A stretch of 64,000 bases of DNA from the NCBI RefSeq assembly GCF_006345805.1, contig NC_043020.1, forward strand, positions 21,142,001 to 21,206,000, read 5' to 3'. Both the position numbers and the translations under genes were made by a program. Each line of letters starts with the position of its first letter. The stretch's first letter is position 1. The notes beneath the pieces were generated by a model. The model searched no databases. It saw only the letters and a list, made by a program, of their open reading frames with translations, and was not told the DNA's origin. The stretch comes from Octopus sinensis. Lineage: Eukaryota. Below, piece by piece: positions 1 to 58,500 of the stretch.

Positions 1-2044
1 CTATACATAAATCTCTTCAGGGAGGATATAAAAAACAGTACTCATCAAATAGACATTTTAACAGATATATGAAGCTTCAGAAAATGTGACGTATATATAT
101 GCATATGCAAACATGCACACATATATGCAACATGTGTTTAGATTAAACATATATTTTTTACAAATATTACATATATACATATAAACACACACATTGATAC
201 ATACATATATATGCACATACATACATGCATACGCAAACCCATATATATATATACACATATATACATATACACCAACACCATATGAGACTAGGTTTTTCCA
301 ACACCTACAATATTTTACAAATTGTAGCATCACATAACAGCTGTGTTCTAAGAGGTTACAGTGTCTCTCCTAATAACCCTAGCAACTTTAATTAAGTTTA
401 CAATAATATTAACGATAATCTCTCCTTAAATCATAATATCAATGAAACTAAGCCTTGCAATTGTGGTCCTCATATAGTCTGTGTCCGAAATGGAAACTGG
501 AGAATTAAGAATGCCATGTACCAGTACAAGATTACCTCTTGTAACAAGGAATATTTTTATATAGGATTCTCCTCTACAGAACTGAAATTGAGACTGGCTA
601 ACCATTTCTCTACCTTCAAATACAATCGTAAGTGTAATTCCACAGGGCTTAGTAAACTAATCTGGCACCTTAAGGACTCTAACAAGCTTTTTTCTTTAGG
701 CTGGAAAATTTTATTTTCATCATTTCCCTATGACAAAGGGAAACCTTTGCACAGAGGAACAAAATTTACAATACTGTTTTCCAAACATAATCTGGTGAAC
801 ACATTTATGGAGTGAGTTTACAGATGTAAATACTGGAAAAAACACACCTTCGTTCTTTTTTCAAATAGTATCTACCTAACAATAATTTCTGCAAATTATC
901 CTTTATGTTTTCTTTATTATTTATCCTTACTTCCAATAACCTTTATTCCTCCATTCATTTTTTTCCCATCTTTTATAAAATCCAATTTTGCCCGCTCCTC
1001 TCCCTCACTCTCTTTTAACTTTGTTTTAATTTTTCCCCCCTCCCTATTCACCTATGCCTTCTCTTCTCTTACCTTATGAAGTATATTTCCTTAATGGCAT
1101 TTTCAAATTTTAGCATTCCCTTCAATACTTAGCTTTCCATATATGTATATGCGTGTTTATCTGGTTTTGTCCCTGTATGTATGCTATGTTAGTGCTATGT
1201 GTGTATGTGCTTATCTAAGCATATGTCAGTGTATGTAAGTATGCGTTTAGATGTATTGCGTTTTTTTTTGGATGTGTATGCTCCTGTATGTGTAAGTGTA
1301 CTTATGTATGTAAGTACGTAGTCATATATGTCTATTAATGTTAGCATATGTATATATGTATATGTTGTGAGTATATATATGTGTGTAGATGTGTTTGTAT
1401 GTATGTGTGTATGCATGTGTGTATGTATATATGTGTATGTTTGTGTGTATATGTATATATATATATATATATATGTGTATATATATATCAGCATATACAT
1501 GAGCATGGCCACAGCTCTGAGCTGGAACCAAAAAAAATGTATATGTACATATATTTATGTGTGGATGTATATATATGTACATGCGTATATGTGCCCTTCT
1601 ACACGTGTATGTGTATAAATGTATATATAGAAATATATATGTTTGTATGGGTATATGTATGTATATATGTATCCATATGTATGTGTGTGTGTGTATATGT
1701 ATATATATATGTATATATATATATATGTATATATATATATGTATATATATATATATGTGTGTATGTATGTATGTGCATATGTATATATGTATATATATAT
1801 ATATATAATAAAATATTAGGGAATAAATCCAAACTTACAGGGAAAAAATCAGATTTAGGATTAATTCCAATTTTATAGTATAAATATATTATATTATATT
1901 ATATTATATTAAATTAGAGATAAAACCACTATTAGGCAAATCAAACAGTGAAAAACATAAGCCAATACATAAAATTAATTTAATTTATATTATTTTAAAT
2001 ATATATCAAAAGTATTAAAAGTTTAATAAAAGATAAAGAGTAAA

Positions 2045-2138
2045 ACACTACGATCGTTTCATGGCTGTACAATTCGAATAACAATAATTTAAATTCAATT
2101 AATAATTCGAGTTATGGTTACAGTCAATCTTCAGGTTA
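2045..2138 (-). ncRNA. Type I hammerhead ribozyme motif (long stem II, weak stem I)
   Basis: Minus strand: CTGAAGA-TTGACTGTA...TACAGCCAT-GAAAC-GATC-GTA, with palindromic stem III ACGATCGT. Confidence 0.6.
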
Positions 2139-2999
2139 ATTGAAATATCTAAAAAATAATCAGAAATATTTAAACAATATTTTTAAGATATAAATAATAT
2201 AATAATATTACTTATAATAAACTCTATTATCAAACTAGAAACATAAAACTTAACAATTATGATTATATCAAAATCGACTATAATGTTAAATATTAATTTT
2301 AATTTATAAGGTAGGAAACCCACCAATTATCTAATATCGGTATTAATCTATATCTAATTACATAAATATTTAAAAATGACTATTATAAATAAATTATCAA
2401 TGAAAATATATAAATGTATATAAATATTATAATTAAGATCTAAAATAATCTCTATAAATAAATATATATGCACATATAATAAAAACCTAATAAATTAATT
2501 TTTCATATTTAAAGATGAAATAGCTAATTTCAAAATACAAATAAACAAACTTAAACGAACTTTCGGAAATCTTATGTAAAATACTTATAGAAATAATCAA
2601 TTCGTAGTAATATAGTATCGAATAAATACTATAAATACTAATTACTAAACCTCACTAAGATAAGTATTTATTTATTTATATTTAAGATCTTCAAATTGTA
2701 AATTTTAATATTGTATAAGTCTTTGGTGTAATAATATTTTCCTTATGTAAATATCGTTGTTTATGTAATGATCTAATTATCGTAATTTTCTATATTATTA
2801 GATATTAAATTTAAGTTTATTCGTAAGATACTACTTAGCGATAGATTTGTTGGTTTATTAGATTATTGGTGGGTTTCCTACCTTATAAATTAAAGTTAAT
2901 ATTTAACATTATAGTCGATTTTGATATAATCATAATTGTTAAGTTTTATGTTTCTAGTTTGATAATAGAGTTTATTATAAGTAATATTATTATATTATT

Positions 3000-3419
3000 A
3001 TAAGCGGGACCAGCCATCTGAATGTGGCTAGGGACAGGGCGGGGTGGTGGGGGTGTTACTGATGCATTTAGCCCCAGGCGACTAAAGACGTCACCAGGAG
3101 AGCCGACACCATCACGGTGTCCTTGCTAGCCTGTAAAGGGAGATCAGCCTCCCCGAAGATACGGATGCTACACACGGACCGGTTTCGAGGTGGTCGCCTC
3201 TCGTCAGTGCATGGCAAGCACCGGCTGATCTCCCTTTACAGGCTAGCAAGGACACCGTGATGGTGTCGGCTCTCCTGGTGACGTCTATAGTTGCCTGGGG
3301 CTAAATGCATCAGTAACACCCCCACCACCCCGCCCTGTCCCTAGCCACATTCAGATGGCTGGTCCCGCTTATATTACAGAGCAGTTACTGTTTATACCTC
3401 GCTTAGAGATTTATTATTG
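3000..3419. mobile_element. GC-rich fold-back insert (about 150-bp arms) with a hammerhead in the loop
   Basis: Arms 2999-3149 and 3223-3373 are near-perfect inverted repeats. The 13-bp direct repeat TTATTATATTATT at 2987-2999 and 3420-3432 is a candidate TSD. Confidence 0.8.
3171..3213 (-). ncRNA. Minimal type I hammerhead ribozyme motif
   Basis: Minus strand: catgca-CTGACGA-GAGG cgacca CCTC-GAAAC-CG-GTC-cgtgtg. Stem III is the palindrome ACCGGT, the triplet is GUC, and the first stem I pair is an A-C mismatch. Confidence 0.7.
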
Positions 3420-3486
3420 TTATTATATTATTTATATCTTTAAAATATTGTTTAAATATTTCTGATTATTTTTTAGATATTTCAAT

Positions 3487-3580
3487 TAACCTGAAGATTG
3501 ACTGTAACCATAACTCGAATTATTAATTGAATTTAAATTATTGTTATTCGAATTGTACAGCCATGAAACGATCGTAGTGT
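3487..3580 (+). ncRNA. Type I hammerhead ribozyme motif (mirror of 2045-2138)
   Basis: CTGAAGA at 3491, GAAACGATCGTA at 3565-3576, stem II GACTGTA/TACAGCC. Confidence 0.6.
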
Positions 3581-4088
3581 TTTACTCTTTATCTTTTATT
3601 AAACTTTTAATACTTTTGATATATATTTAAAATAATATAAATTAAATTAATTTTATGTATTGGCTTATGTTTTTCATTGTTTGATTTGCCTAATAGTGGT
3701 TTTATCTCTAATTTAATATATATATATATATAATATATATATATATGGGTTTGCATATGCGTGTGCATATGTATGTATATATTAATGTGTGTGTGTTTAT
3801 ATGTATATATGTAATATTAATAAAAATATAATTGTTTATCTTGACATATGTATTGTGTGTGTGCTGGCATATGCATACGTCACATTTTCTGGGTCTTCAT
3901 ATATTTGTTAACTTGTCTATTTGATGGGTACTGTTTTTTATACTTTCCCTGAAGAGATTGATGCATAGCTGACCATTATATATCCTGTCGGACATATTTT
4001 GGTCACATCCATCAATACACATGTAGGAGATATGAAAATATATTTGATTTAATAACACCTTGAGCACTTGTCCCCTTTTTCTATTCTT

Positions 4089-5960: not shown

Positions 5961-6481
5961 ATTACATGGAAAAATGCAAGCATGAAAAGTCATATTCTTA
6001 AGATTATAAACCTAGGAAAGTACAGGACAAGTTATTACACCTGTAAAAGTTTAGGACAAACTATTATTTCAAGTAAAGTAAAGAATAAGAAACTTTTTAC
6101 TTAAAATATTGCAGCAAAGAATGCCAGTTCTTCTAATTTATCACTCTTTACAGTTCTCATCTTTGAAATTTATTGTACAAAACTGTTCAGCTAATTTGTA
6201 AGTTTGTCTAATTAGTCACTTTTTTCTGTATTTAAGGCAGTAAATTAGCCAAATTCTACTTAAATAAATATAGTGTTATTTGTAAACTATAATAAAATAA
6301 GTTTTAATATTCAAATTTTAATTTTAGCTGCAATATTTTGAGTAAAAAGTTTCTTATTCTTTACTTTACTAGAAGTAATAGCTTGTCCTATACTTTTACA
6401 GATGTAATAACTTGTCCTGTACTTTTCCAGGATTATAATCTTAAGAATATGACTTTCCATGCTTGCATTTTTCCATGTAAT
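5961..6481. repeat. Fold-back element (about 155-bp inverted arms) next to (TA)n
   Basis: 5961-6115 is the reverse complement of 6328-6481, with scattered mismatches. Confidence 0.8.
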
Positions 6482-36310: not shown

Positions 36311-37312
36311 GTATATATGAAGACATCTAAACATACAACTATATGCACGAAAATACATACATAAATCAACCCATACAAATCTGCATATATACATACAAAA
36401 ATACTCTGTTGATGTTGTTGAAATTCCAATGAAGGACCCTTGGATCTAGGTTAGAAACCAGCTCTTTATTGACAAGAAATTTTGAAATAAAACTGAATAA
36501 TGACATACATACATATGTACATACATCCCTCCCTCCCTCCCTCCATCCATCCATCCATACATACATACATACATACATGCATACATACATACATGTATAC
36601 AAATACATCTATGTAAATAATGATTGAAGATATATAAATAGGTAATGGGTGTATATGCATATTTCAGGAGTTATTGCTCCTTCTTCAGCACCACATCCAC
36701 CCTACTAAACCATCCATGAATACATCTCTTAAATACTCGCTAAGTTTAGCAGTATTGGATAACCCAACTGTGTTGTTGAAGAAGAAGCAAGAACTCCTGA
36801 AATATGCACCCTTTACCTATTTTGATATCTTCAATTGCAATGTGTATAAATGTATTTGTATACAGAACATCATAACTTTCATTTCTGGCTCCAAATTCTT
36901 TTGAATATCTGTAGAGATAAACTTAAAATTGAAAACAACACAATGCTAACACAAAAGCAGGACATAGTGTTAACTTATAAACCCTTAATGAACTTGATAG
37001 TATATTATGGTTGTCAAATGAAATACAGTGTTCCTACCAACAGCATTAAAAATATTTTGTTTCTTATATATTATAACTTATTGTGTCTCCAGAAGATAAT
37101 CTCTAACCAGTTAGTTATAATGTGAACCAGGCTATTATAGTTCTTCCAGAGACTGTTATTAGTTCAGTGGTCTTGTGAGCCCCAGAATCTATTGCTGGAG
37201 GTGTGGGGAAGAAATATGCTAATTATTTGTGAAATTTTCTCACTAATTTACCAATTCTGAGACTCCTAACCTTCTTATATTTGTCTATCTCTTATTTTCT
37301 TTTCAAAAATAG

Positions 37313-37548
37313 ATCTGCTGAGGTTTCAGAAACAGTCCAAGCAAAGAGCATTGGGAAATTTTGCTGTTCTAGTAAGACCTGTGCTGCTTCCATTGTTTAT
37401 TTGTCACTGTTCTACAATGTGTTTGTTTGCAGTGGGGTACCAATATCTTTGGGTGTCATGTACCCTGAACTCAAAGCAAGTTTCTCCAGTACAAATGCTG
37501 AAGCAGCAACTATTGTATCATTAGCAATGGGTCTCCTCACATCTGGTG
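37313..37548 (+). CDS. Internal coding exon of an SLC16/monocarboxylate transporter-like MFS gene (TM1-TM2 region)
   Basis: Polypyrimidine tract plus AG acceptor (37311-37312) and GTAAGT donor (37549). It encodes SAEVSETV...IVYLSLFYNVFVCSGVPISLGVMYPELKASFSSTNAEAATIVSLAMGLLTSG, which is MCT-like (G-x-x-x-S-x-G-V-x-Y-x-E-L...F). It ends in phase 1, matching the next exon. The upstream exon with the start codon was not identified. Confidence 0.8.
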
Positions 37549-37669
37549 GTAAGTTTCTACATTTCTTTTCTAACACTATTATAATCATTTTGGACTATTT
37601 GTACTTGCCTGCCTCAGTGTGTATTTTGTGTGTGTGTGTGGGTGTGATAGAGAAAGAAAGAGAGAGAGA

Positions 37670-38798: not shown

Positions 38799-41547
38799 AT
38801 CATCATCATCATCATCATCGTTTAACGTCTGTTCTCCATGCTAGCATGGGTTGGACGGTTCGACCGGGGATCTGGGAAGCCAGAAGGCTGCACCAGGCTC
38901 CAGTCTTATCTGGCAATGTTTCTACAGCTGGATGCCCTTCCTAACGCCAACCACTCCGTGAGTGTAGTGGGTGCTTTTTACGTGCCACCTGCACAGGTGC
39001 CAGGCGAGGCTGGCAATGGCCACGGTCGGATTGGTGTATTTTATGTGCCACCGGCACGGAAGCCAGTCGAGGTGGCGCTGGCATCGGCCACGAGTCGGAT
39101 AGTGCTTTTTACGTACCACCAGACCAGGGATCCTGGCTGGTTCAATTCGATTTCGCTTTCGCTTGCCCCAACATGTCTTCGCAAGCAAAGGGGGGTTGGC
39201 ATTGGTGCCTGTCGTACGGTCGGATCGGTGTATTTTACGTGCCACCGGCACGGAAGCCAGTGGAGGCGGCACTGGCATCGGCCACGAGTCGGATAGTGCT
39301 TTTACGTACCACCAGACCAGGGATCCTGGCTGGTTCAATTCGATTTCGATTTCGCTTTCGCTTGCCCCAACATGTCTTCGCAAGCAAAGGGGGTTGGCAT
39401 GGGTGCCTGTCGTCGGATGAGGTTCTATATCGACTTCGCTTACCTCAACAGGTCTTTGTGTCCAAGGGAGGAAAGGCATTCATAAGTGGGCTGGGCTCAC
39501 TTGTCCTGCCTGGTCTTCTCACGTACAGCATATTTCCAGAGGTCTCGGTCGCTGGTCATTTCCTCAGTGAGGCCTAAAGTTCGAAGGTCGTGCTTCACCA
39601 CCTCGTCCCAGGTTTTCCTGGGTCTACCTCTTCCACGGGCTTCCTCAACTGCTAGGGATTGGCACTTTCTCACACACCTATCTTCATCCATTCTTGCCAC
39701 ATGACCATACAAGCGCAATCGTCTCTCTTGCACACCACAACTGATGCTTCTTAGGTACAACATTTCTCTCAAGGTACTAATGCTCTGTCGAGTATGTACA
39801 CTCACATTACACATCCATCGGAGCATACTGGCTTCATTCCTCACGAGCTTACGCATGTCCTCAGCAGTCACGGCCCATGTTTCACTGTGATGTAGCATGG
39901 CTGTTCATACACATGCATCATACAGTCTGCCTTTTACTCTGAGCGAGAGGCCTTTAGTCACCAGCAGAGGTAAGAGCTCCCTAAACTTTGCCCAGGCTAT
40001 TCTTATTCTAGCAGTTACACTTTCAGTGCACCCACCCCCACTACTGACTTGGTCACCTAGATAACGGAAGCTATCAACTACTTCTAGTTTTTCCCCCTGG
40101 AAAGTGACGGAAGTTGTTTTCTGCAGATTTTCGGAGGTTAATGCTCCCGAGCATCTGCCACATACAAAAACTATCTTCCCAGTTAGCCTACCTTTGACAT
40201 TGCTGCACTTCTTATGTGTCCATAGCTTACACTGGGTACATCTTATAGAGTTTCTACCTACACCTTTTCTACAGATTGAGCAGGGCCATCTTCCTGAAGA
40301 CATTTGTGGATTGTCTACTTTCCTACTTATTAGTACTTTGGTTTTAGCTAGGTTGACTCTAAGGCCCCTCGATTCTAAACCCTCCTTCCACACCTGGAAC
40401 TTCTCCTCCAGTTCTGATAGTGACTCAGCAATTAGAGCAAGGTCGTCAGCGTAGAGGAGCTCCCAGGGGCAACCTGTCTTGAATTCCTCCGTAATTGCCT
40501 GGAGGACTATGATAAATAGGAGGGGGCTGAGTACTGAACCCTGGTGGACCCCAACCTCTACTTTGAATTCTTCTGTGTACATGTTGCCAACCCTAACCTT
40601 ACTTACGGCATCTCTGTACATGGCTTGCACAGCCCTCACCAGCCATTCATCTATCCCTAGTTTCCTCATTGACCACCAGATAAGGGATCGGGGGACCCTA
40701 TCAAAGGCTTTCTCCATGTCAATGAAAGCCAGGTACAGGGGCTTATCTTTGGCTAGGTATTTCTCCTGCAGCTGCCTTACCAGGAATATAGCATCAGAAT
40801 AATTACAGAATGGGATAAAGAGAGTCTGCCGAATGTCAACCCAACAGAGGGACCAGCCATCCGAGCTGAAAATTCTTTGGTAGTTAAAGCAATTAGAAGC
40901 ATGAAGACAGGGAAAGCCCCAAGCCCATCAGGAATTACTGCAGAGATGCTCAAAATATCTGACATTGCTGCACTTCTTATGTGTCCATAGCTTACACTGG
41001 GTACATCTTATAGAGTTTCTACCTACACCTTTTCTACAGATTGAGCAGGGCCATCTTCCTGAAGACATTTGTGGATTGTCTACCTTCCTACTTATTATAG
41101 TCAACCAGGTGATAACCTGGTTGACTATACGGGTGACTAGGTTATAGCCGACACTGCCAGATATTTGGAGCATCTCTGCAGTAATTCCTGATGGGCCTGG
41201 GGCTTTCCCTGTCTTCATGCTTCTAATTGCTTTAACTACCAAAGAATTTTCAGCTCGGATGGCTGGTCCCTCTGTTGGGTTGACATTCGGCAGACTCTCT
41301 TTATCCCATTCATTTTCTTTATTCAGCAACCTTTCATAGTGGCATCTCCAAACCTCTCTCTTTGCATCCTCATTTAGCGCAAGTAAACCATCATCCATGC
41401 GAACACACTTCTCTCCTACCACATCACGGTTCTCTCTCACACACTGTCTTGCAACACGAAATACCTCAAGTCTTTCATCCTCACGGCTCAGTACATTGTC
41501 AAATTTTTTCTTATCCGCTTCCCCTCTGGCTAAATAAACCTGTCTCC
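38799..41547 (-). mobile_element. Relatively young, 5'-truncated and rearranged RTE LINE with a PHD finger inside RT
   Basis: [32 protein letters not shown]4HC3 finger, FRYLG and GRGRPRKTW. It has an (ATC)n tail and a tandem duplication of about 190 bp in the 3' UTR. Confidence 0.92.
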
Positions 41548-41992: not shown

Positions 41993-42035
41993 CCACTACA
42001 ATCGTTTCTTGTCTTGATCGACAATCTTCAGGTGG
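41993..42035 (-). ncRNA. Type I hammerhead ribozyme
   Basis: Reverse complement of 42088-42130. Confidence 0.8.
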
Positions 42036-42130: not shown

Positions 42131-42307
42131 CGGTTTTTTTTGACTATTTATTAAAATTTTATGTATTGATTAAGTCTTTCCTTGTTTGTTTGCAAAATAG
42201 TGGTTTTGTCTCGAATAATATTTTATAATATTTTACTATAAAATCGATTTAATCCTAAATCTGATTTTTTCCCTGTAAATTTGGATTTATTCCCTAATAT
42301 TTATTAT

Positions 42308-42636: not shown

Positions 42637-42967
42637 ATTGTTATATTTCGTAATGGTCATATTGCCATTTTAGCCAATAAAAACACACGCACTATATATT
42701 TGGTGTTATTTTGCTTCAGTGTTATTTATTTTTTACATTAATCTTAATCTTATTTCGGCCAGAGTTCTTTCATCACACTCCTGTGACCGCATCAGTGGTC
42801 CTTTGTTTTCTTCTTACTTATTTGTGTCTCTCCTTACTAACCGTCAGCCATTTTGTAGTGCATGTGTTTTTATTGGCTAAAATGGCAATATGACCATTCC
42901 GAAATATAACAATATCTGTTTCAACACACGACTTCACATAAAAAATCTTGCACAACAAATATTTAAC

Positions 42968-43007
<40 letters not shown>

Positions 43008-43012
43008 GTATA

Positions 43013-43098
<86 letters not shown>

Positions 43099-43738
43099 AT
43101 ATATACGTTTAAATATTTGTTGTGCAAGATTTTTTATGTGAAGACGTGTGTTGAAACAGATTTTGTTATATTTCGGAATGGTCATTTTGCCTTCCCCCTT
43201 TTATTTTTTTTCAATTCAAATTATTATTATTACTAGTATTGTTGTTATACATACATACATACATACATATGTAATGATAATAATAGGTGGATGTAAACAC
43301 ATGAACAAAATAAGAATAAACAAAAACAACAAAAACAAAAACAAAAAACAAAATACAAATTACATGAACATATAAAATTACAAATTACATGAACATATAT
43401 AAACAGAAGATACAAATATTACAGGCATCCCCCACATACATACACTAAATAAACATAAACGCACATAGAGATATAAGCATGTGCAATTGAAGACATACAA
43501 TAGAAATACAAAATGGCTGACGGTTAGTAAGGAGAGACACAAATAAGTAAGAAGAAAACAAAGGACCACTGATGCGGTCACAGGAGTGTGATGAAAGAAC
43601 TCTGGCCGAAATAAGATTAAGATTAATGTAAGAAATAAATAACACTGAAGAAAAATAACACTGAAGCAAAGTAACACCAAATATATAGTACATGTGTTTT
43701 TATTGGCTAAACTGGCAAAATGACCATTCCGAAATATA
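42637..43738. mobile_element. Two fold-back mini-elements of one family, tail-to-tail across a (TA)n tract
   Basis: 42637-42693 is inverted to 42857-42912. The tail 42913-42968 is inverted to 43106-43160. About 42640-42856 is inverted to 43510-43738. Confidence 0.75.
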
Positions 43739-43923: not shown

Positions 43924-44069
43924 AAAACCTGTTGGCTTAAGGTCTCTCTAGCAAGTGGTCTTTCTAGAATATGGAAGATGAAAGGACCTCACTGTATGTA
44001 TATATATATATATTAAGTGAAGGGAAGAAATGGAGCTGAACGAAGATTCTACAAAATTCCTTTTTATTA

Positions 44070-44153
44070 TTTTCTACATATGTTTCAAAGGCTGCAAATT
44101 TCCAAATTTGGATTGAATAAGGAGACCATTTTGCAGCTTTCTCTTCAGGAAAA
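44070..44153 (-). ncRNA. Type I hammerhead ribozyme (mirror of 45141-45224)
   Basis: Reverse complement of the 45141-45224 motif. Confidence 0.8.
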
Positions 44154-45140
44154 ACCAGGAATTTAAATCTCCAAACAAATGCACAGCAAGCTATTCGAAC
44201 AAAGCGCTCCCTAGGAGCCCATGTTAAGGCACAAAACTTCACAACATTTCGCGATTTTAGAAAACAACACGCGACCGGACTGAGTAAATTAATCTGGCGT
44301 TTGAAGAACGCGAATTCAGCATTTAGACTGGAATGGTCGATTTTATCGGTGTCTGCACCGTTTAATAGAGGCAAAAGAATCTGTAATCTCTGCAACTCTG
44401 AACTTTTTCACATTTTGTTCGCCCGAGGGCAGCTGGTTAACGCGATTTTGCAAAACTCTTTCAGATGTTCCCACTGGAGGTGGCACTCATTTCTTGCATA
44501 CAATTGAAGCCTAAGATAATTAACACCTTGATGTCCTAAGAAAAGAAAAAAATTTTGGAAAAAATTTTGAAAAAAATTTTGAATTAAATTTGTAAAGGGA
44601 AATTACTTCCCTTTTAGCGTATGATCTGCTACTTATTTAGAAACAATATCAGGGATTATACTCCCCTTGTTTGACAAGTCATCTGTGTATAAACTGACCA
44701 CAGACGAACACACAGACACAGGCTTTTATCAGCCGCTTGACCTACAATATCTGCAATATATTTTCCCTCTAGCTGCTTCCTAACATACTGCCACACATAC
44801 ACAGGCGCACACGCACATACATGTAAGTAGTTTCTCACACCCAAATAAGATAGCTTTCATTCTTAAAACAATTCGAACATTAACATTAGTTATACAGAAT
44901 ATATTCACTCTCTTTGGTTTTCTGGAATTCTTCCCCTACCAAATTTAACCGCAGTTTGACCTCGAATTCTTCCCCTACCAAATTTAACCGCAGTTTGACC
45001 AACGGACTTTTTCGTCAGCCTTCACCCACCCTGACGTCAACGCACATTGAGAGACAATTTTGTGCCTTACCATGGGCTCCTAGGGAGCGTTTTGTTCGAA
45101 TAGCTTGCTGCGCATTTGCTTGGAGATTTAAATTCCTGGT

Positions 45141-45224
45141 TTTTCCTGAAGAGAAAGCTGCAAAATGGTCTCCTTATTCAATCCGAATTTGGAAATTTGC
45201 AGCCTTTGAAACATATGTAGAAAA
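45141..45224 (+). ncRNA. Type I hammerhead ribozyme
   Basis: TTTTC-CTGAAGA-GAAAGCTGCAAA...TTTGCAGCCTTT-GAAAC-ATAT-GTA-GAAAA, with palindrome ACATATGT. Predicted cleavage is after 45219. Confidence 0.82.
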
Positions 45225-45451
45225 TAATAAAAAGGAATTTTGTAGAATCTTCGTTCAGCTCCATTTCTTCCCTTCACTTAATATATAAAACTTCAATTAT
45301 CCGCGCTAAGGCACGGTTGCGACACCCCATGGTTGTAACCTCAACCGTATTTTTTCTGTTGTGATTTTTGCTACCCAGGTATCGGTTAAATTTTGAATAA
45401 TCCGTAACAAGATAATTCATTTATCCATTTCAATAAATATATATATATATG

Positions 45452-48643: not shown

Positions 48644-49007
48644 CGGTTTTTTTGACTATTTATTAAAATTTTATGTATTGATTAAGTCTTTCCTTGTTTG
48701 TTTTGCAAAATAGTGGTTTTGTCTCTAATAATATTTTATAATATTTTACTATAAAATTGGATTTAATCCTAAATCTGATTTTTTCCCTGTAAATTTGGAT
48801 TTATTCCCTAATATTTATTATTTATATATATATATATTTATATATATATATACATATATATATATATACATATATTATATTAAATTAGAGATAAAACCAC
48901 TATTAGGCAAATCATACAATGAAAAACTTAAGCCAATACATAAGATTATTTAATTTATATTATTTAAATATATAACAAAATTATTTAAAAAAATATAATT
49001 AATATAA

Positions 49008-55755: not shown

Positions 55756-56034
55756 TTTCTAATGTATAGAGTTATCTACATTTTTGTTATTAGATTTAAT
55801 AATATTTTTGTTTGCTTTATGTTTTAGCTGATTATCTTATTATTGTTTTCATAACAGTCACTACTTTTTCTAGTTACCATATGTGTTTGTCTATTAGCTA
55901 TAGAATCTATAGCATAATAGCCTGGAACAATTACTGACCTCAACATTCACTGATGCTGGTGCTACTGAATTTCACCCAAAACAAACAGTTAAGAAAAACA
56001 TCTCATTGTGGAATGTTCAGAATTTACTACTTCT

Positions 56035-58500
56035 ACACTGGCCCCTATTGCATGTACAATCATTTCTTTCACCTGATTGTTGTTCTTGGGGTTTTGGGTG
56101 CGTGTGGTCCAGCAATTCAAGCACTCTGTGGTGCTTTTCTTCACAGCTGAAGTGATGGTGGGTGGGCTTCCTCACTGTGACCTGGTGGTGCAGAATCTAC
56201 TAAGGTCATGGTTATCTAAATAGTCACTGTTGTAGCTTAGTCTGAGGAGGAGGCCCAGTTCCCTTGTATTGACCTTATGGAACTCCACTTCAGGTAAAAT
56301 TACCTGAATGCATTCCTCCACAGCAAAATCTAAGTCTATAGATGGGTAGAGTGAAATTACACCCATACTACCCACTACACAACCTGTGAGTTTGTTGGAG
56401 TGGTTGCAAGTACTGATTTTACTGAGGAGATCTTTCGTGCTCACACAGACATCCAGAGACATCTCTATGAGAGGTCATAATACCTGTGAGAGGAAGTAGG
56501 ACAGTCTATAGTTGCTGGAGATATTTGCTTTGTAAACTGGTCTGGTTGGGGGCCCCATGACAAGGTTTATGTAGGGTTTGTGGTCTTTGCGTAACCCGTA
56601 TAGTGCAGGAACATCATTTTGGATGCTTGGAAATTGTTTGCCACCCTTTTCATAGGTTGGAGTATGTTGCACCACATTCCCATGTGTGCATTGAGGAATT
56701 TTTCTACTCTTTCATGTTCCTGTGCTTGCAGCTTCTGTCATGCTACTGATGTGTTGTTGCATGGTCTGGACATAGTTATGTGGGCTGTCTATTGACAGTC
56801 TGCCAGATTTGTCCATAGAGAGGCACACTAATTCTCTATTCCTAATTCACTGTTTCAGTTTTTGTAGGCCTTTGTCAACAGATGGACTGAGTTGGTGGGT
56901 CCCCTCCTCACTATGCTTTTTAGTGGATTTGTTGTATCGGTCTAAGACATGTTGGAGTCTGTTTCTAGCTAAGGAGATCTTTGCTTCTGTTTCACTGTCA
57001 ATTTGGAGTGGGATACAGTGACTATTTAGATGACCATGACCTCAGTAGATTCTGACCCACCAGGTCACAGAGGGGAAGACCACCCACCATCACTTCAGCA
57101 GTGAAGAAAAACACCACAGAATGCTTGAGTGGCTGGACCGCACCCACCCAAAAACCTTAGAACAACAATCAGGTAAAAGAAATGAGTGTGCATGCAATAG
57201 GGGTCAGTGTAAAAACCACCTTGAAGAACCACATAGTAAAGTTTAACCAAAAACTATACAGGCAGGTTTATGGTGCAGCCATCGGTGTCAATGTAGCAGG
57301 AGATGTGGCCGGCCTCTTCATGACCTGGTGGGACAGAAAACTTAAGTAAATGTTAGCAGAACCGTCCACAACTCTTCTACTCTACAGTAGATATGCAGAT
57401 GACATTAATGTCATAATTAGGACCAACTCTAATAATGGTAGTGTAGAAACTGAGAGGAACATAATGGAGAGCATCCAGTGAGTAGCTAACTCCATCCACC
57501 AAAGTATCAAGGTAGCTATGGATTACCCCACTAAGCACCCCAACAATAGACTCCCCGTACTTGATACTGAACTTTGGTTAGAGACTGTGAACAACAGAGT
57601 GCAGCTCCTCCACTCCTATTACATGAAACCCATAGTTTCAAAATATATTGTTCACAAGAACTCAGCTCTGTAATGCAACATGAAAATTAACATACTAATA
57701 GCAGACTTAGTAGGATAATGAACAATGTGTCCCCACTATGCAAACCCTATGAAACGAAAAAACATATACAGAACTTCATACACTGCATGCAGTTCTCTGG
57801 ATATGATCAGAATGATAGGTTTTGAGTATATAGGGGTGCTAGAAAGAAATTACATAACATTATACATAATGATACCAGTGGTACCTGCCCTAGATATAGA
57901 AACAAAGACTAGAATATGATACAAAGAACTTGTGACAAAGCAAACAGGGCGAACACGTGGTATAAAACCGACAATTATCAAGGAGTGATGTTTGCAGAGG
58001 CCACAGCCCATGGAGAACTAGCCTGTAGATTTAGAAAAGCTCTGAAGGAGACCAAACTCAACATTAAGTTTGTTGAAAAGCCAGGGAACTCCGTCAGATC
58101 ACAACTATGTAGAACGTACCCATTTGAGAATACCATATCCACCAATGATAACTGCATGGTATGTAGGATTAGCCCTGGCATTAACTGTAGAACTAGAAAT
58201 GTAGTTTACAGCATAAGATGCACAGAAGGTGCTTGTAAAGGCATGAACAGGACATACATAGGGGAGACATCTAGGAGCATTGTGGAATGACTAAATGAAC
58301 ATTTGAGACAATATGACAACAAAAAAACAGTCCTCCATACTCTACCAACATGCCAAGGAACAACAAGGAGGTAACCTGGGTCAACATGACACCCGTATCT
58401 TATCCAAGCACCCCTAAGACCCAACACTCAGACAAATATGGGAGTACGTCCTCATAAATGAAACATCCCCAATACTAAATAGGAAATATACATAGTAGAT
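56035..58500. mobile_element. Decayed PLE with an inverted 5' half (RT N-part on -, RT C-part + GIY-YIG on +)
   Basis: PALYGLRKDHK and SLYPSID on -; GAAIG, YSRYADD, LPVLD and VYSIRC...YIGETSRS on +. 56035-56230 is inverted to 57016-57211. Confidence 0.85.

Follow-up and report, generated by a model that had tools for sequence, protein, structure and literature searches.

The window analysed here, a 64,000-nucleotide stretch of the Octopus sinensis genome, contains a GC-rich hairpin with a hammerhead ribozyme motif in its loop, which raises the question of whether such a rod is an RNA element in its own right or the trace of how a repeat was inserted. The surrounding animal sequence is rich in AT, contains numerous microsatellites, fold-back repeats and LINE fragments, and includes a segment (37400-37560) that reads like an exon of what we take to be a membrane transporter, with no Pfam support. 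We consider it highly probable (roughly 0.85) that the insert is a fold-back of the end of an abundant repeat family, the end that carries the hammerhead, and that it was likely inserted into AT-rich DNA by the reverse transcriptase (RT) and GIY-YIG endonuclease of a Penelope-like element (PLE).

Anatomy of the insert and its nested setting

The insert spans 420 bp (3000-3419), is exactly bounded and lies inside another repeat. Arm 1 (3000-3149) is a tail-less copy of an element end with its sense on the minus strand, and arm 2 (3223-3372) is a 5'-truncated, tail-bearing copy with its sense on the plus strand. The original prediction described near-perfect 150-bp arms with about three mismatches, far richer in GC than the flanks, and this was borne out: the arms mismatch at 2 of 150 positions (3080/3292 and 3085/3287), extension without gaps to 2996/3376 adds one further mismatch, and the GC content is 0.58 in the arms and 0.18-0.19 in the flanks. 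The hairpin loop (3150-3222, minus strand) is a 73-nt 5' extension of arm 1 that is absent from arm 2, and a one-sided tail of 47 nt (3373-3419, plus strand) lies between arm 2 and the right target-site duplication (TSD), with no counterpart on the left. The two halves of the insert overlap by 150 nt, with 73 nt private to arm 1 and 47 nt private to arm 2, in agreement with the proposal of a young PLE-type insertion in which the inverted copy extends 5' beyond the tail-bearing one.

The 13-bp candidate TSD proposed at the outset was also recovered, with copies at 2987-2999 and 3420-3432 (both plus strand). This 13-mer occurs four times in the 64-kb window, counting both strands. In the mirror arm of the surrounding host element it is present once (2193-2205) with no insert, representing a preserved empty site, and the TSD pair together with this single-copy site shows that the insertion is real and exactly bounded. 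No second copy of the insert was found in the window. Two 16-base matches at 40846 and 41255 were considered as a second copy and rejected as chance, both falling in a 5'-inverted LINE fragment. The fold-back at 40808-41311, with 160-bp arms, lies 5' in a LINE fragment that contains an RT domain (39905-40927) and is an overlapping inversion in a non-PLE element. Further fold-back repeats with arms of 160-230 bp were noted at 5961-6481, 42647-43733 and 56034-57211.

The host element (1880-3746), which belongs to a different family, is a fold-back repeat rich in AT, with arms at 1880-2336 and 2856-3746, the right arm being split by the insert. It contains hammerhead cores with a long helix II at 2134 (minus) and 3491 (plus), pointing outward like that of the insert, and a one-sided extension or tail at 1805-1880 (minus strand), copies of which are present at 42230-42307 and 48743-48821. 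Relatives of the host element were seen near 42.2-42.3 kb and 48.7-49.1 kb. An older inverted pair (1-102 and 3867-3968, 86% alike), with CUGAAGA cores at 20 (minus) and 3949 (plus), encloses the host. A fragment inside this older pair (396-812) gave a weak GIY-YIG match (E 7e-4, below the Pfam cut-off), the only match to Pfam among nine candidate PLE fragments of the window, and a search for its longer relatives came back empty. The region 1-3968 probably represents three nested PLE-type insertions.

The repeat family, its age and its origin

The insert or part of it was recovered from 20 of the 24 public sequencing runs listed, under five organism labels, with six runs containing at least half of 30 sampled words. 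The runs with the insert span 10 studies, or 9 if the study of the best run is set aside, and none of those listed is an RNA run. Contigs from 4 of the 20 runs, carrying four organism labels, were aligned to positions 2900-3520, yielding 1602, 1419, 834 and 541 aligned contigs per run with all 30 bins covered in each; the aligned interval takes in about 200 bases of the host flank, which is repetitive too, and the counts should not be read as numbers of copies. Most aligned contigs were less than 99% alike to the insert region. The family of the insert is abundant and diverged in all four runs.

The contigs also indicated where the family ends. Loose ends after 3419 were found in two runs (53 and 51 contigs, with consensus agreements of 0.57 and 0.54) and after 3423 in three runs (5-6 contigs); among the 24 of 330 entries listed, agreement with the consensus at these two positions ranged from 0.54 to 0.61. 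Such heterogeneous ends, as expected for many insertion sites, place the 3' end of the family at the tail, at about 3419-3423. Loose ends before 3381 were present in all four runs (39-63 contigs), with agreements of 0.77-0.86 and one shared consensus among the same 24 of 330 entries. By eye, this consensus matches 3351-3380 at 13 of 30 positions. A shared but divergent consensus points to a diverged sister family that keeps the last 39 nt (3381-3419), and this sister family could be an autonomous partner. Five pieces cross from arm 1 into the loop among the 32 of 4415 listed, with no contig having 31 letters on both sides of that crossing; over the inversion junction (3222/3223), the same 32 pieces from the four runs include no independent contig and no strand-change joint.

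A literature search by text, in which sequence could not be used as a query, returned no description of the family. An octopus repeat annotation (PMC13282606) counts 893 unclassified SINE families alongside 30 Penelope families with recent activity, with ribozymes unmentioned in its accessible text, and the family of the insert may be contained in that repeat library.

The high GC content and seemingly intact CpGs had been taken as signs of youth or of a foreign origin. As for youth, the insertion and the family have to be separated. The low divergence of the insert arms and of the host arms (5 mismatches and 4 gaps in 476 aligned bases) indicates that both insertions are young, unless the arms were homogenised later; the family itself, diverged and common to several organism labels, is not young. 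The CpGs are not generally intact, the observed/expected ratios being 0.49 and 0.42 in the arms and 1.06 in the loop, compared with 0.36 for the whole window, and a CpG transition accounts for one of the two mismatches between the arms. ADAR-type hyper-editing was considered and rejected, since only two differences separate the arms and the positions at which this copy departs from the family majority either show the same change in the two arms or are of mixed types. There is no support for a foreign origin. An abundant and diverged family argues against a new or foreign element, and equally GC-rich stretches occur elsewhere in the window (38.8-39.5 kb and 52.9-53.4 kb). Exact-motif scans of two metagenome collections, one viral and one prokaryote collection, together with a distant phage search, gave no matches, a null result that speaks only against a microbial or viral source because such collections are not expected to hold animal repeats.

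The hammerhead in the loop

As predicted, the loop holds a hammerhead on the minus strand. It is a type I hammerhead at 3163-3222 with its core at 3207-3177, helix II at 3200-3187 and a palindromic helix III at 3183-3178. Read on the minus strand, it runs from CUGACGA (3207-3201) through helix II (GAGG/CCUC, enclosing a 6-nt loop) to GAAA, CCGG and UC, so that the conserved core is complete (C3, U4, G5, A6, G8, A9, G12, A13, A14, A15.1, U16.1, C17 and the pair G10.1-C11.1). The predicted cut lies between 3177 and 3176. A descriptor of the motif, written after the motif had been seen, matched none of 5000 dinucleotide shuffles of the insert. Helix II consists of 4 bp counted from G10.1-C11.1, with no extra base after A9 and with loop 3 present. 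Helix III is 1-2 pairs capped by a 6-base palindrome, for which a 6-pair intermolecular helix of -8.3 kcal/mol is predicted; in this model, the hammerhead would need a second copy for helix III.

Helix I is less regular. It begins with an A-C mismatch (A2.1 opposite C1.1), followed by 5 pairs (two of them wobbles), an internal loop and a distal helix that pairs 3222-3217 with 3169-3163, starting at the last base of the inverted copy. Its U1.7 and the C...A of loop 2 presumably resemble those of the Schistosoma ribozyme. The 5' strand of helix I has an alternative perfect partner within the arm, and by eye no NUH triplet precedes that partner. For this copy the predicted energy of the active register was -8.2 kcal/mol compared with -21.4 kcal/mol for a shifted fold, placing the probability of the active register near zero; fold models omit core and tertiary energy, and this low score is a hint of poor activity only. 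The ribozyme of this copy is thus predicted to prefer an inactive register.

In all four runs the common loop variants fell at 3167 and at 3173, where the change replaces a helix I wobble with a standard pair. No variant at a frequency of at least 5% was listed in any of the four runs at 3174-3222, a stretch that includes both bases of the A-C pair, and this is short of proof of conservation, as contigs had to be at least 85% alike to be compared. The core is likely conserved across the family and the A-C pair likely a family state; the mismatch may not be damage specific to this copy. The accessible literature offered nothing usable on the effect of a 1.1/2.1 mismatch. Summed contig depth drops across the predicted cut site, although contig depth cannot rank parts of the element.

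The hammerhead had been called minimal, a label that does not hold. Minimal PLE hammerheads are described with a helix II of 7-8 bp, an unpaired 5' base and a helix III reduced to conserved bases, and canonical ones with a 4-bp helix II and a helix III of 1-2 bp with a palindromic loop of 2-4 nt (PMC4209133). The hammerhead in the insert shares with minimal metazoan PLE hammerheads its type I topology and the prediction that it works as a dimer via a palindrome, but differs from them in its 4-bp helix II, the absence of an extra base between A9 and 10.1 and the presence of loop 3 (PMC4209133). Its full core, 4-bp helix II and helix III size all match the canonical metazoan type I hammerhead. 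For helix I, the canonical form has 6 bp with contacts between loops 1 and 2; in the insert, 5 pairs follow the A-C mismatch, ahead of the internal loop and the distal helix.

The descriptor identified 10 distinct hammerhead-like sites in the window, several of them as mirror pairs. Near-identical short hammerheads at 42031 (minus), 42092 (plus), 45629 (minus) and 48605 (plus) belong to one AT-rich family and form mirror pairs adjoining long (TA)n tracts. Single hammerhead-like motifs of other families were found at 36688 (minus), 18652 (minus), 29822 (plus) and 49068 (minus); the 36688 motif has near canonical proportions, with a 5-bp helix II and a 6-nt loop. Rfam returned nothing at gathering score in the window, the only hits being hairpin-shaped miRNA models far below threshold.

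Mode of insertion and nature of the master element

The insert likely follows the insertion pattern already described for endonuclease-containing (EN+) PLEs. An inverted, 5'-truncated copy together with a tail of 30-40 bp at one end has been described for PLE insertions (PMC8557442), and PLE units with TSDs of 8-10 bp, head-to-head orientation, AT-rich targets and nesting in other PLEs have been reported (PMC3846280). With such EN+ units (Pen2a_Av and others; PMC3846280; PMC8557442) the insert shares the inverted, 5'-truncated head-to-head copy, the one-sided tail, the TSD, an AT-rich target, a PLE-like repeat as insertion site and a type I hammerhead in the element end. Unlike them, it retains no ORF body, has a GC content of 58% and carries a canonical rather than minimal hammerhead. 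The 47-nt tail (39 nt of it shared with the sister family) and the 13-bp TSD are slightly longer than the published values. A supporting parallel is found in the window itself, where the host element and an element at 44007-45287 are likewise fold-backs with hammerheads and one-sided extensions. The latter has hammerheads at 44148 (minus) and 45146 (plus), and a GIY-YIG-like reading frame was noted by eye at 44121-44504, with no Pfam match.

Because each half of the insert holds sequence that the other lacks, one fold-back cannot supply both loop and tail, and two cDNAs primed at both target nicks likely explain the insert. The endonuclease would nick the two strands 13 bases apart, giving two 3' ends, each of which would prime a cDNA at one of two internal RNA start sites that are separated by 47 nt. 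The top-strand 3' end at 2999 would prime a 223-nt cDNA (3000-3222) from the inner start and through the uncut ribozyme, and the bottom-strand 3' end at 3420 a 197-nt cDNA (3419-3223) from the outer start. The two aborted cDNA ends would then be joined head to head, so that the rod would be made at insertion rather than being a feature of the element's own RNA, with the ribozyme as the usual pLTR passenger. As the longer cDNA continues 46 nt beyond the cut site, the RNA that it copied would have been either uncut or joined again after cutting. In vitro work on a purified PLE protein showed cutting and extension of both DNA strands at AT-rich ATT sites, RT starts at two internal positions that delimit the tail, and the use of uncleaved RNA as template; the protein is predicted to be a dimer (PMC11167929). 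The system in question, PAc (Poseidon of Anolis carolinensis), fits the insert in its both-strand cutting of AT-rich DNA, its two tail-bounding RT starts and its uncleaved template. It differs in layout: the PAc ORF opens within the ribozyme and is entered by 111-118 nt at the RT starts (PMC11167929), whereas the starts of the insert would be about 200 and 247 nt away from helix II, and all three frames contain stops in the intervening sequence. That the inversion was caused by two-ended priming is something that we infer here, and it differs from the published proposal of self-priming on an antisense template (PMC3846280).

Several observations weigh against the PLE explanation. No RT or endonuclease gene of the insert's family was found, and the machinery in the window amounts to the one GIY-YIG match below cut-off. 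Canonical ribozymes in animals are reported mainly from retrozymes rather than PLEs (PMC7229834, PMC7761336, PMC4209133), and none of the independent contigs listed contains the 3222/3223 junction. 

As to coding capacity, scans of public metagenome, viral and prokaryote collections, which are not expected to hold animal repeats, gave no longer copy, and no coding trace was accepted in the insert. The longest ATG frame in the sense orientation is 26 codons, from 3355 through the tail, and its position recalls pLTRs that include an ORF start (PMC3846280). All four variants listed at 3362-3377 are non-silent in this frame, and a coding start at 3355 is considered doubtful.

If the PLE explanation is kept, an autonomous PLE end and a non-coding PLE parasite are about equally open as the master element. 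We regard as tentative, and on balance unlikely, the fuller version of the latter, in which the family is a GC-rich non-coding Penelope parasite whose canonical hammerhead is of the retrozyme type and whose PLE tail has been kept by diverged families. It is likewise doubtful that the family is a non-LTR retrozyme, a tandem hammerhead repeat with a circular RNA, of which this locus would be a truncated, inverted offshoot made by a PLE protein; such a reading overlaps the PLE explanation in mechanism and differs in the nature of the master. Animal canonical hammerheads have been reported mainly from tandem retrozymes with GC contents below 45-50% (PMC7229834, PMC7761336, PMC6155905), and retrozymes have been argued to derive from PLE ends (bioRxiv 10.64898/2026.07.22.740005; the word 'tail' has no match in the main text of this preprint). 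The insert shares with metazoan non-LTR retrozymes (PMC7229834, PMC7761336, bioRxiv 10.64898/2026.07.22.740005) the canonical helix sizes, a weak palindromic helix III, a short and apparently non-coding sequence (there is no convincing frame downstream of the ribozyme) and a large TSD, and the first cDNA runs past the cut site, as expected if a multimer or circle had been copied. Unlike them, it is non-tandem and combines a PLE tail with an inversion. There are no tandem hammerhead units at the locus and no such joint among the contig pieces listed, whether going back or changing strand; the loose ends past the tail are heterogeneous, without one common continuation; the GC content of 58% exceeds the range given for retrozymes (PMC7229834); and the sense strand is not unusually self-paired, although that measurement (z = -0.59) was made on the sequence of this copy, and a complete monomer may extend beyond it.

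The 375-nt ribozyme-bearing rod had further been likened to viroid-like or retrozyme RNAs. That it is a mobile or functional RNA, either viroid-like or a hairpin source of small RNAs, is very improbable. The full hairpin does fold at z = -32, with none of 100 shuffles equally good, and any read-through transcript would form a 150-bp duplex. However, when folded singly, neither sense strand was more stable than expected from 200 shuffles of it (z = -0.59 and -0.02), and an unstructured single arm implies that the rod arises from the inversion and is confined to read-through transcripts of this locus. Viroid-like RNAs further differ from the insert, which is integrated with a TSD and has a hammerhead in one polarity only. 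Fold-backs of unrelated families recur in the window, even in the LINE fragment at 40808-41311, and the same inversion junction appears in no contig listed from the four runs. The long hairpin is likely a by-product of insertion. There is similarly little room for an assembly or amplification chimera: the lack of an independent contig over 3222/3223 among the 32 of 4415 pieces listed would agree with it, but the arms differ at two sites, one a CpG transition, and the TSD, the one-sided tail and the empty site in the mirror arm would all need chance. A MITE-like DNA transposon with the arms as terminal inverted repeats, which would account for a short, non-coding, high-copy sequence with inverted arms and a TSD, is the least credible, given the 47-nt tail outside the arm on one side with the TSD beyond it, the family end fixed at the tail and the hammerhead.

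Read as a PLE-mediated fold-back, the insert is otherwise unremarkable, a further PLE stump among the many in this genome. Its value is as a specimen: with a complete TSD, an adjacent empty site and unique sequence in both halves, it is more readily explained by two-ended priming than by a single fold-back. If the master element is non-coding, canonical-hammerhead elements would be tied directly to PLE machinery, a link that has so far come from co-occurrence and phylogeny. Should the parasite reading prove true, the insert would be anatomical proof that PLE protein moves canonical-hammerhead elements, and a 39-nt cis signal would be defined. The two overlapping cDNAs would then point to two template RNAs per insertion, and the helix III palindrome would possibly hold these RNAs together, as a dimerisation signal rather than a cutter.
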